Positions 42,245-46,520 of a stretch of 52,369 nt of DNA are shown in pieces. The position numbers and the translations under genes are program-made. Within the stretch, counting starts at the first letter, position 1. Each line of letters opens with the position of its first letter. The stretch is taken from positions 1-52,369 of the forward strand of contig CAYTIA010000006.1 of assembly GCA_964437755.1 (NCBI GenBank). The letters are read 5' to 3'. This DNA is from an uncultured Pseudomonadales bacterium (lineage in GTDB: Bacteria; Patescibacteriota; Microgenomatia; UBA1400; PJMF01). The notes beneath the pieces were generated by a model. The model did not search any database. It saw nothing but the letters and a program-made list of their open reading frames with translations, and was not told where the DNA came from.

Positions 42245-42607
42245 ATGAAAAAAAGTGATAACAAATCATCAGAACCAAAACACACTCTTTATGATACTCC
42301 ATTTAATACCTATTTCAGAAAATTAGATAAAATTGATAAAGGTAAGAGATATTCTAAAGAATATGGTTCTATCTTAATTCTGGGATTGGTAGAGGAGATT
42401 GGCGAAATGGCCAGAGCTTATCTTGCAGAACACGGAAGAAAGAAAACAAATATTGCTGCCCAGCTTGATGAAACATACGAGCAAGAACTAGGAGATATTC
42501 TTGTAGCAATCATCAGATTTGCCAGAATAAAAAATATAAACCTTCACGAAAGGATCATGTACACACTCGAGAAAATCGAGAAAAGAAGGACAAAACCGAA
42601 AATATAA
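42245..42607 (+). CDS. MazG-like nucleotide pyrophosphohydrolase
   Basis: LVEEIGEMA...ELGDIL (EExGE...ExxD). Confidence 0.85.
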   Translation: MKKSDNKSSEPKHTLYDTPFNTYFRKLDKIDKGKRYSKEYGSILILGLVEEIGEMARAYLAEHGRKKTNIAAQLDETYEQELGDILVAIIRFARIKNINLHERIMYTLEKIEKRRTKPKI

Positions 42608-42617
42608 AACTCAACCA

Positions 42618-42977
42618 TCATTGAAGCATAATGCAACTGTCAGTTTGAGTTAAGATGTTATTTTCCTGGCAATATTCAATAGCTTTTTTACTTTCACTAC
42701 CTGGTTGAAACCAAATTTTTTTTACACCCTGTAACAAAGCTTTTTTAACTATTTCTTCACTAACTTGAGGAGGTACCACCAGAATAACTAAATCAATCTT
42801 CTCAGGAATTTCTGAAAGTGAAGTATAAACAATATTTCCTAATATCTCTCCACCTTTGTAATTAACAGGAAAAACATTTGCCCCTTGTTCAAGAAAGTGT
42901 TTATAAACTTTATATCCATATTTATTAGTATTTGAAGACGCCCCAACAACTGCGATTGTGGAAATATTATTTAGCAT
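42618..42977 (-). CDS. Stand-alone CoA-binding protein (YccU-like)
   Basis: IAVVGAS...KYG, PVN, IDLV, IWFQPG motifs. Confidence 0.9.
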   Translation of the reverse strand: MLNNISTIAVVGASSNTNKYGYKVYKHFLEQGANVFPVNYKGGEILGNIVYTSLSEIPEKIDLVILVVPPQVSEEIVKKALLQGVKKIWFQPGSESKKAIEYCQENNILTQTDSCIMLQ

Positions 42978-44104
42978 AACTGAAAAAAATTACATATTTG
43001 CATAAATTGCTCTTTTATGCTTTTTGAGTCAGATTCTGAAGTGTTATCGACTATCCAGATTTTTCCATAAGAATCTCTTGAAATAATTTTCTCCATCGAC
43101 TCGAGTTTTTGATCAAAAGAGTACTGACTTTCAAGCCTCCTCTTGATCTGTTCATTATTAAGATTTCTTTTTAATAATCTTTTATGTTGGGTATCCTCAT
43201 TCGTTTTCACTAAACAAACATTGTTATTTGATAAATAGGTCATATCTGACTCAATTAATAAAGCTGCGTTCAATAAAATTAAACCTTTTTTACCATTTAG
43301 CTCCCTCCTGATTCTAACCAACAACGGCAGGTGCATAATCTCGTTTAACCGGTTTAATTTTTTATAATCTGTAAAAACCACCTCCCCAAGCACTTTTCGA
43401 TTAATGCTTCCATCGGAGTTTTTTACATCATTTCCAAACTCATCTGCAATCATATCTCTGATTTGTTGGTATTTGGGTTCTTTTAATTCTTGATAAATTT
43501 GATGAGTCACTAAATCAAGATCAATATGAAATACCGGAATATTATTTTCTTTTCCAAGTTCAACGAATTTATCACTAACATAAGATTTTCCAGAACCAAT
43601 CTCTCCCGTGATAGTCACAATGTGCTGATCACCCATCTTTTCTTCAAGTGCTTGCTTAACATTGAGAGGCACAAACTCATGTATCAGTCCCTGATCTTTT
43701 TGCAGTTGTTTAACATTGCTAGAACTAACATGAGCTAACTCTGACCTAGAAACCAAGATAAACGTATCAAGCCCAACCTTTTGAGAATCCCCCAGTTTAT
43801 GCAAGTTTACCTCATACTCAAAATCTGTTGGATTGCGAACCCCCTTAACAATCACATCAGCGCCAATTTCATAGGCAAAATCTATTAAGAGACCAGTAAA
43901 TGAAACAACTGTAACATTAGAGTATTTGATCAAGGCCTGTTGAGCTAATTGAGTTCTCTCTTCAAGAGAAAAAAGGTATTTTTTTTCAGGATTAACGCCA
44001 ATTGCCACTATTAGTTCATCAAAAACAGAAGCAGCTCGACGAATAATATCTATATGCCCATAAGTAATGGGGTCTCCGGAAAAAGCGTAAATTGCTTTTG
44101 ACAT
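42971..44104 (-). CDS. coaD-coaE: Bifunctional phosphopantetheine adenylyltransferase / dephospho-CoA kinase fusion
   Basis: N-terminal DPITYGH, KGVR...DFEYE and SSS.VK (CoaD); C-terminal TGEIGSGKS, INR..LG..VF and AALLIE (CoaE). Confidence 0.9.
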   Translation of the reverse strand: MSKAIYAFSGDPITYGHIDIIRRAASVFDELIVAIGVNPEKKYLFSLEERTQLAQQALIKYSNVTVVSFTGLLIDFAYEIGADVIVKGVRNPTDFEYEVNLHKLGDSQKVGLDTFILVSRSELAHVSSSNVKQLQKDQGLIHEFVPLNVKQALEEKMGDQHIVTITGEIGSGKSYVSDKFVELGKENNIPVFHIDLDLVTHQIYQELKEPKYQQIRDMIADEFGNDVKNSDGSINRKVLGEVVFTDYKKLNRLNEIMHLPLLVRIRRELNGKKGLILLNAALLIESDMTYLSNNNVCLVKTNEDTQHKRLLKRNLNNEQIKRRLESQYSFDQKLESMEKIISRDSYGKIWIVDNTSESDSKSIKEQFMQICNFFQLC

Positions 44105-44228: not shown

Positions 44229-46328
44229 TTACTCAATAACCACTCTTACGTCAAGTACTTTTGCACCATCACCCTTTGGCAAAGCTAGCAATGGGTTAAT
44301 ATCAAGCTCAACAATTTCTGGAAAATCAGTAACAAGTTGAGATAGTCTGCCAATACACTCTGACAACATCTCAATATCTTTTGCTTTTTCTCCTCTAACC
44401 CCCTTAAACAAATCTGAGGTTTTAAGTGTTTGAATCATGTTTAAAGCATCAGTTTTTGTTAATGGAGCATAAGCAAAGTTTACATCCTTCAAAACCTCAA
44501 CATAAATTCCCCCTAATCCAAACATAATCATTGTTCCAAGGCCAGGAGCTCGATTTACTCCCAAGATTACTTCCGTTCCATTATCTGGAGCCATCTCCAT
44601 TAGCAAAACACCTTCCAGTCTGGCTTTTGGTTTATTTTTTGAAACTGTTTTGATCATTTGCTCATACTTTTCTTCGATATCATCCGAGGTAACATTGAGC
44701 ATTACACCGCCAACATCACTCTTATGTAAGATATCTGGCGAAACAATCTTCATTGCCAGTTTTGATCCAAACTTTTTTGCTATCTGTAAAGCTTGATCTG
44801 CTGATTTTGCAATCTCACTTTGCAGAACAGGAAAATTGTAAGCCTTGATAATCTCCATCGCTTCAGCTTCGGGAAAAGAGGTTTGTCCCTTTTTTCTAGC
44901 TTCGCTAAAAATCCTTTTTACTTTCTCCTTGTCTACATCCCTAAATTCCATCGATTTTTCTATTGGAGTGTTATGCCATGAAACAAACTTGTCAAGTTGA
45001 GCTAATGCTTTTGCTCCAGGCTCAGGAAAAGATGCCGTTGCAACTTTTTCTCCTCTAAGTAAATCAACTCCAGGTCTAACAGTTATAGCACCCATCATAC
45101 TCACCACAATTGGTTTGGAGATATGCTTTCGCGCATCAACAATAACTCTGGCAGTTTCCTCAATTTCTGTCATTGACTGAGGAGTCATGATTACCTGAAT
45201 AGAATCAACATTTTTGTCTGTGGCAATTAACTCAAGAGCAAATTTGTAACGATCGGCTCTAGCATCTCCTAAGACGTCAACTGGATTATGAGAGCTTGCA
45301 GCTGGAGGTAAAAATTCTTTTAATTTTTTAGTGGTATCTTCAGACAACTGGGCCATTTCTAGTCCATTGTCAGTAGCCTCATCTGTAGTTAAAACACCTG
45401 GGCCACCAGCATTAGTAATAATCGCTAAATTCTTTGCTTTCTTGAGAGGATTTAGTGCAAAAATTTGGGCTAAATCAAACAGTTCCTTAATGCTTGTAGC
45501 ACGAATAATTCCTGCCTGTTTAAATAGAGCGTTATAAGCTGCATCACCGCCTGCCAATGAGCCGGTGTGTGAGGCTATCGCTCCTGCTCCAGCTTCAGTT
45601 CTCCCTGATTTTAAGACAATCACTGGCTTTGGATTGTTACCTCGATTAATCTTTTTCATCAGCTCAATAAATTCTGGAGCATTGGTTAGTTCTTCAGCAT
45701 AAATTAAAATCACTTTTGTCTGATCATCTTCAGCCAAGTACTTAATCAATTTTATTTCATTTACATCTGCTTTATTACCAATACTGATAAACTTTGAAAA
45801 ACCAACACCAAGCTCTTTGGCATAATCTAATACAGCTGTGCAAAGCGCTCCACTCTGAGACATAAATGCTACCGAGCCAAGTTCTGGCATTAGTTGTCCA
45901 AAAGAAGCATTCATTTTAATTTCAGGATTAATAGCTCCAAGACAGTTGGGGCCAACTAAGCTGATTTTATTTTTTTCACAAACTTTTTTTAATTGAGATT
46001 CAAGTTCTACATTACCTATTTCTTTAAAACCTGCAGATATAACAATTGCGGCTTTTGCTCCTTTTTTAGCAGCTTGCTCTAAATTTTCAGGGACAAATTT
46101 AGCTGGAATTGCAACCACTGCTAAATCAATAGTTGTATCAACTGAGCTAATATCTGGAAAAACTTTTTTTCCATACAGCTCTTCAATTTTTGGATTGATA
46201 GGAATAATTTTTCCTTTATAACCCTGATAAACCAAATTTTTTACTATATCGTTGCCAACCGTTTTTTCTCTGCTAGAAGCACCGATAATTGCAATCGACT
46301 TAGGATAAAAAAGAGACTTTAAACTCAT
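44229..46328 (-). CDS. acdAB: Acetate-CoA ligase (ADP-forming), fused alpha-beta; start 46328 or 46340
   Basis: IIGAS, GPNCLG, SQSG, ASHTGSL (phospho-His retained), TNAGGPG, NPVD, HKSDVGGV and ELDINP motifs; no GNAT domain. Confidence 0.9.
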   Translation of the reverse strand: MSLKSLFYPKSIAIIGASSREKTVGNDIVKNLVYQGYKGKIIPINPKIEELYGKKVFPDISSVDTTIDLAVVAIPAKFVPENLEQAAKKGAKAAIVISAGFKEIGNVELESQLKKVCEKNKISLVGPNCLGAINPEIKMNASFGQLMPELGSVAFMSQSGALCTAVLDYAKELGVGFSKFISIGNKADVNEIKLIKYLAEDDQTKVILIYAEELTNAPEFIELMKKINRGNNPKPVIVLKSGRTEAGAGAIASHTGSLAGGDAAYNALFKQAGIIRATSIKELFDLAQIFALNPLKKAKNLAIITNAGGPGVLTTDEATDNGLEMAQLSEDTTKKLKEFLPPAASSHNPVDVLGDARADRYKFALELIATDKNVDSIQVIMTPQSMTEIEETARVIVDARKHISKPIVVSMMGAITVRPGVDLLRGEKVATASFPEPGAKALAQLDKFVSWHNTPIEKSMEFRDVDKEKVKRIFSEARKKGQTSFPEAEAMEIIKAYNFPVLQSEIAKSADQALQIAKKFGSKLAMKIVSPDILHKSDVGGVMLNVTSDDIEEKYEQMIKTVSKNKPKARLEGVLLMEMAPDNGTEVILGVNRAPGLGTMIMFGLGGIYVEVLKDVNFAYAPLTKTDALNMIQTLKTSDLFKGVRGEKAKDIEMLSECIGRLSQLVTDFPEIVELDINPLLALPKGDGAKVLDVRVVIE

Positions 46329-46520
46329 ACTACCTTTCATTCAATTATTAATGGATAGACTTTGATATTCTATTCAAGATTGATAAAAAAATTAAGAGGC
46401 AGTTTTTCGCTAATTTTTTACTAGCTCTTTTTTTTACACTCCATCTTCTTTATTGTCATTTTTTTAGATTCCTGCTACCATAAGTAATCAGCGATTATCA
46501 TACAAAGTATTCATAAAAAT

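Follow-up and report, generated by a model that had tools for sequence, protein, structure and literature searches.

The window, that is, the whole 52,369-nucleotide stretch of DNA that was analysed, is one contig (C6) of a 1.03 Mb genome, which is assembled in 28 contigs and is 97.8% complete. On its reverse strand, at positions 42971..44104, lies an open reading frame of 377 amino acids plus stop, with an ATG start, that encodes a phosphopantetheine adenylyltransferase (PPAT, CoaD) fused to a dephospho-CoA kinase (DPCK, CoaE); the gene is denoted coaDE. The gene of a fused alpha-beta ADP-forming acyl-CoA synthetase (ACD; 703 residues, 44229..46340, reverse strand), recognised by Pfam and NCBIfam models, is positioned 124 nt upstream on the same strand. 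Downstream, the ATG of a gene for a stand-alone CoA-binding protein (CoA_binding_2 in Pfam; 119 residues, 42618..42977, reverse strand) overlaps the stop codon of coaDE in the sequence ATGCTAA (42971-42977). This small protein is homologous to 1y81, PH1109 (2d59) and TT1466, and its gene is present in six loci of the CPR clade described below. No terminator-like sites were found between the three genes, which are presumably co-transcribed. A 120-residue MazG-like pyrophosphohydrolase gene (42245-42607, forward strand) converges with the CoA-binding gene, their 3' ends being about 10 nt apart; this neighbour is kept in eight loci of the window's sub-clade, where it is followed by dnaG. The stretch occurs in eight DNA runs labelled sludge metagenome, with no RNA run among those listed.

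The original prediction, that a single 377-residue frame holds both enzymes, is borne out by the profile searches, in which the two halves score above the curated NCBIfam cut-offs. The CoaD half (residues 1-158; 43631..44104, reverse strand) matches TIGR01510 with 156.2 bits (cut-off 103.3 bits) over residues 4-156, covering profile positions 2-154 of 155, and the CoaE half (residues 159-377; 42974..43630, reverse strand) matches the dephospho-CoA kinase model TIGR00152 with 106.9 bits (cut-off 65.55 bits) over residues 162-344. Pfam is in agreement, with CTP_transf_like (PF01467) and CoaE (PF01121). The CoaD half is 43-44% identical to E. coli PPAT, while the CoaE half aligns to the A. aeolicus and E. 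coli kinases. An AF2 model of the whole chain is confident (pLDDT 90.3, pTM 0.88); in it, the CoaD half and E. coli PPAT can be superposed with a TM score of 0.92 and an rmsd of 1.6 Å. The junction of the halves is linker-free in the model, a helix (147-158) leading directly into a strand (160-167). Structure comparison of the model found no solved structure covering the CoaD and CoaE halves together.

An unusual feature of the protein is the motif F8-S9-G10-D11-P12 (44069..44083, reverse strand). As had been noticed at the outset, it stands where GSFDP would be expected: in a gapless alignment to E. coli PPAT (1b6t/6b7a) it is opposite G9-T10-F11-D12-P13, so that Gly and Phe are exchanged, the Ser/Thr position is retained and the canonical G-(S/T)-F-D-P of CoaD is absent. 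The two exchanged residues correspond to Gly9 and Phe11 of the E. coli enzyme and lie within the nucleotide-binding loop. The adjoining T-Y-G-H (44054..44065, reverse strand) corresponds to the (T/H)xGH nucleotidyltransferase motif, with H17 equivalent to E. coli His18. The N-terminus of the protein fits the consensus of the fused family, MxKAIYAFSGDP, and Y-A-F-S-G-D-P-I-T-(Y/F)-G-H is near-invariant in 119 fused homologues (F8 in 113/119, S9 in 119/119, G10 in 118/119, with G16 and H17 invariant). Because of this near-invariance the sequences identify FSGDP as a signature of the clade, not as decay. Among the 120 best-scoring proteins of 86-277 residues that match the CoaD half, 98 carry GSFDP and 12 carry FSGDP; since these 12 are mostly on short contigs, they are probably fragments of the fusion. 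A few of the 120 have intermediate motifs (LSADP, ASLDP, LSGDP).

The remaining catalytic residues are conserved throughout the family. K41, R90, D94, E98 and S127-S129 of the PPAT half, equivalent to E. coli Lys42, Arg91, Asp95/Glu99 and Ser128-130, are invariant or nearly so in the 119 homologues. The kinase half has a GxxGxGK(S/T) P-loop (G-E-I-G-S-G-K-S, residues 167-174; 43583..43606, reverse strand), the Asp after strand 2 and the lid Arg residues; G167 and K173 of the P-loop are invariant, and D197, Q306, R309 and R313 are likewise conserved in the 119 homologues. Neither half thus appears inactive, in line with the expectation that the two domains are functional, and judged by its sequence the fusion is probably an active enzyme.

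The genomes that carry the fusion offer a view of whether the FSGDP form works as a PPAT. In four large, coaBC-bearing genomes among the 50 carrier genomes analysed, the fusion is the sole CoaD above the cut-off: a Spirochaete MAG (G013), a Spirochaetales MAG (G030) and two Fibrobacteres MAGs (G023 and G027). CoaX is present in G013, G023 and G027; G030 has coaBC only, with no CoaX match. Incompleteness of the MAGs is a caveat on this pattern, which nevertheless recurs in two phyla. Because it is the sole CoaD of genomes with coaX and coaBC, the FSGDP form appears, from gene content, to be PPAT-competent. In ten other large genomes the fusion is an additional copy beside canonical coaD and coaE, where its role may differ from plain biosynthesis.

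The genome to which the window belongs contains none of the earlier steps that were looked for. Family searches of it, accompanied by positive controls, detected no coaBC (PPCS/PPCDC), no CoaX (type III PanK), no type II PanK, no AcpS and no ACP (PP-binding), and gave no real match to CoaA (type I PanK), all at 97.8% completeness. The genome check for coaA/coaX and coaBC proposed with the original prediction was therefore negative throughout, as was that for type II PanK, and the reading of the locus as a salvage route stands, with no full CoA pathway found elsewhere in the genome. The genome does encode, in addition to ACD, a 2-oxoacid:ferredoxin oxidoreductase (OFOR) of two subunits, a 573-residue fused gamma-alpha subunit and a 285-residue beta subunit (contig C1, 53706-57395; L083). 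This genome has neither PFL nor PFL activase, the genes of which often adjoin coaDE in other CPR. With OFOR and ACD present and ACP and AcpS absent, CoA would serve to carry acyl groups in ATP formation and would not be required for the loading of carrier proteins. A gene for a 186-residue Nudix hydrolase lies divergently beside OFOR; it was considered as a CoA pyrophosphatase and rejected, as the CoA-Nudix signature is absent on inspection by eye.

Taken together, we consider it probable that the fusion is a bifunctional CoA synthase of bacterial parts, which converts external 4'-phosphopantetheine to CoA for OFOR/ACD-based ATP formation. The CoaD half would transfer an adenylyl group from ATP to 4'-phosphopantetheine, giving dephospho-CoA, and the abutting CoaE half would phosphorylate the 3'-OH of the latter to give CoA. 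The CoA would then serve as a recycled carrier for OFOR and the ACD encoded upstream, yielding ATP by substrate-level phosphorylation, and the small CoA-binding protein would be produced by translational coupling downstream of coaDE. Since no enzyme making 4'-phosphopantetheine and no carrier proteins to load were found in the genome, this substrate is most likely supplied from outside, by a host or by the community; that it is taken up, and from a host in particular, we only infer, and no candidate transporter for it was recognised. E. coli reportedly excretes 4'-phosphopantetheine (Jackowski and Rock are said to have described this in 1984), and the compound is also said, by Srinivasan et al. 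in 2015, to be stable and to pass into animal cells; if so, it is a plausible community metabolite. Scavenging with PPAT and DPCK only has a published precedent in Mollicutes (PMC8721197).

The fused family is large. A 90%-identity protein collection contains about 994 relatives whose lengths fall in the range of the fusion and which bear CPR and DPANN labels, and some relatives in JGI records are already named 'pantetheine-phosphate adenylyltransferase/dephospho-CoA kinase'. When 185,579 species genomes were scanned with a pattern, 173 loci were retrieved, and every one of the best 80 encodes a fused protein. The CPR carriers among these best 80 of 173 are Woesebacteria, Pacebacteria and Microgenomatus; the DPANN carriers are Woese-, Pace-, Nano-, Aenigm- and Micrarchaeota and Nanohaloarchaea; and the others are Planctomycetes, Fibrobacteres, Spirochaetes, two Proteobacteria, one Cytophagaceae and one Clostridiales MAG. 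The fusion is not CPR-specific. The survey of its distribution suggested by the original prediction thus finds it in CPR, but also in DPANN and in free-living bacteria with full pathways. Among the 50 carrier genomes, a coaBC match is present in every one of at least 1.9 Mb (full-length or split, two being weak or broken), and about 30 small CPR and DPANN carriers have none, with two DPANN exceptions. DUF359, the archaeal DPCK, is absent from the five DPANN carriers G009, G017, G018, G019 and G026. Two of these five encode the archaeal ribosomal protein S3Ae on the contig that carries the fusion, so that their assignment to an archaeal host does not result from misbinning. Some MAGs titled 'uncultured Pseudomonadales bacterium' or 'uncultured Methanosarcinales archaeon' group with CPR and DPANN sequences on the tree described below and have the same synteny (loci L003-L009, L011, L026, L028, L034, L035 and others; L012, L022, L060); these titles look like placeholder taxonomy.

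Within the window's own phylum the fusion is rare. In an even sample of 200 species, about five have the fusion, about five have separate coaD and coaE, and four have coaE only, leaving about 185 (~92%) with neither CoaD nor CoaE. The one genome of the same family has it, while it is missing from nine relatives that belong to the same order or class. ACD is encoded by 58 of the 200 species, while any CoaD or CoaE is found in only about 15, and about 45 species have ACD without either. As ACD is strictly CoA-dependent yet CoaD and CoaE are rare, most ACD-bearing species of the phylum must obtain finished CoA or use unknown enzymes. Direct acquisition of CoA evidently works in the phylum, and the fusion is therefore not strictly needed.

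A tree of 81 fusions was calculated with concatenated canonical coaD and coaE from eight carrier genomes as the outgroup. The fused family forms one clade (SH-aLRT 100), which is separated by a long stem from the canonical coaD and coaE of the same genomes. The CPR fusions form a single group of 33 (support 88), adjoining those of Fibrobacteres, and the Planctomycetes fusions form one clade (support 99). The DPANN fusions are paraphyletic at the base of the tree; as the outgroup branches are long, this basal position and the direction of transfer are unsettled.

The 81 loci (33 of the CPR clade, 48 others) have two mutually exclusive types of neighbourhood. ACD lies just upstream of coaDE in all 31 CPR loci (of 33) whose contigs leave room upstream for an assessment, and in none of the 48 others; PFL and PFL activase are near coaDE in 17 and 18 of the 33 CPR loci, respectively, and in 0/48 others. 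Conversely, a gene of a family here termed u205 immediately follows coaDE in 22 of the 48 other loci (e.g. L059:7131-7796 and L080:1587-2219) and in 0/33 CPR loci. In three of the 48, all from Spirochaetales MAGs, u205 is fused to the C-terminus of CoaDE, giving proteins of 581-593 residues (L050:6001-7758, L056:1385-3130 and L062:5564-7345); no such fusion occurs in the 33 CPR loci. The lineages that pair or fuse coaDE with u205 are DPANN archaea, Planctomycetes and Spirochaetes. Three CPR loci (L005, L028 and L049; e.g. L049:2-604) have an unannotated ORF of about 200 residues between ACD and coaDE. In L054 (CP011212.1, a complete 853 kb genome labelled candidate division TM6), a 14-gene PFL-PFLAE-ACD-CoaDE synteny is the same as in Pacebacteria-labelled MAGs, and its CoaDE nests among Pacebacteria-labelled sequences; an anomaly must lie in the label or in the past of this locus.

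The u205 proteins are about 205 residues long and have H...HD...D motifs, with invariant residues that include H44, H48, H77, D147 and D149, and with D78 nearly invariant. The family has no match in Pfam or NCBIfam, and its matches in the PDB are weak (YedJ, E 0.013). A confident structural model gives weak matches to PDE-like folds (Foldseek E ~1e-2, TM 0.58-0.64), and neighbours in the Atlas are named 'HD superfamily phosphohydrolase / NMDAR2C-like'. One idea, by analogy, is that u205 may release the substrate of PPAT, as AcpH does from holo-ACP. The window's own genome has a distant relative of u205 only (L104:2649-3290 on contig C14; hhalign 96%, 25% identity, with a weak Pfam HD match), which lies between genes for an NT5C-type 5'-nucleotidase and a HAD phosphatase.

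These observations allow a broader, tentative proposal for the family as a whole. Proteins of the FSGDP clade may constitute an isozyme dedicated to CoA salvage, which is separate from housekeeping CoaD and CoaE, is horizontally mobile and perhaps differs in its feedback control; it would have moved among DPANN archaea, CPR and anaerobic free-living bacteria. It would have been welded to an ATP-yielding PFL/ACD operon in CPR and paired elsewhere with a substrate-releasing, PDE-like HD hydrolase, which may free, for example, 4'-phosphopantetheine from holo-carrier proteins or CoA-derived compounds. We regard this as possible but less likely than not.

Other explanations of the fusion in the window's genome can be weighed against salvage of external 4'-phosphopantetheine. 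The one that we take most seriously, though it seems rather unlikely, is internal recycling, in which CoA or dephospho-CoA would be acquired whole and the fusion would rebuild CoA from the 4'-phosphopantetheine of intracellular CoA breakdown. Most sampled ACD-bearing species of the phylum are without CoaD and CoaE, so import of finished CoA seems common, and the extra fusion copy beside canonical coaD and coaE in large genomes is as expected of a recycling isozyme. However, no CoA pyrophosphatase was recognised, the Nudix protein next to OFOR being without the CoA-Nudix signature by eye, and the search of the genome found neither an ACP nor an AcpH-type source of 4'-phosphopantetheine. A source one step earlier is less probable still: pantetheine or pantethine could be imported, phosphorylated by an unrecognised kinase and passed to the fusion, a kind of salvage that operates through PanK and is established for bacteria that include E. 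coli (see the review PMC12570885), but PanK of types I, II and III all went undetected in this genome.

We think it very improbable that a complete pathway was missed, either in the unassembled ~2% of the genome or through non-homologous enzymes. The genome is indeed in 28 contigs, yet independent searches for four families found nothing, with their controls duly detected, and about 30 other small carrier genomes are likewise without coaBC. Equally hard to credit is that the FSGDP exchange alters the chemistry, through a different acceptor or nucleotide or through loss of PPAT activity, which would make the protein something other than a simple CoA synthase. The exchange is clade-specific and falls in the loop that binds the nucleotide, but all other catalytic residues are retained, the fold of the model hardly differs from that of E. 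coli PPAT, and the fusion is the sole PPAT of the three genomes with coaX and coaBC, as well as of G030 with coaBC only.

CoA is indispensable, and yet the majority of ultra-small bacteria and archaea have no genes for making it. The fusion marks the minority of these organisms that would be able to finish CoA from a late precursor, and in CPR it is hard-wired to a CoA-dependent, ATP-yielding step; this linkage to ACD suggests that 4'-phosphopantetheine is likely a metabolite traded between symbionts and hosts. The fusion would also give biochemists a compact CoA synthase that covers two steps, while its pairing with u205 gives an uncharacterised hydrolase family a testable tie to CoA metabolism.

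The fusion belongs to a widespread but unstudied family; bifunctional CoA synthases as a kind are already known. Compared with stand-alone CoaD (E. coli 1b6t/6b7a) and CoaE (E. coli 1n3b, A. aeolicus 2if2), the two halves are homologous over their full length and share the catalytic His, Lys and Arg, the SSS motif, the P-loop and the DxD; unlike these enzymes, the fusion is one linker-free chain, has FSGDP for G(S/T)FDP and sits on a long stem in the tree. Eukaryotic COASY has the same two activities in the same order, PPAT followed by DPCK, and the DPCK halves are homologous (mouse 2f6r, E 6e-14). In contrast, the PPAT of the fusion is of the bacterial CoaD type (TIGR01510) and not of the eukaryote/archaeal type: the best models and structures for this half are all bacterial CoaD. 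The description of the protein as a counterpart of animal CoA synthase with a bacterial CoaD thus holds for both domain order and PPAT type, and the bacterial PPAT indicates that the fusion arose independently of COASY. In archaea, PPAT is found fused to a GTP-dependent DPCK (arCOG04076/DUF359; PMC6650551); this fusion, too, places the last two CoA steps in one protein, but both of its domains are from other families. No description of a fusion of CoaE to a CoaD of the bacterial type, be it in CPR or in DPANN, was found in open-access papers or bioRxiv. In its genomic setting, the system resembles the route of Mollicutes (PMC8721197), where a small, host-dependent genome likewise encodes the last two steps only and is presumed to scavenge 4'-phosphopantetheine. 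PPAT and DPCK are separate genes in Mollicutes, with some HAD-DPCK fusions, whereas here the two enzymes are a single protein linked to ACD.
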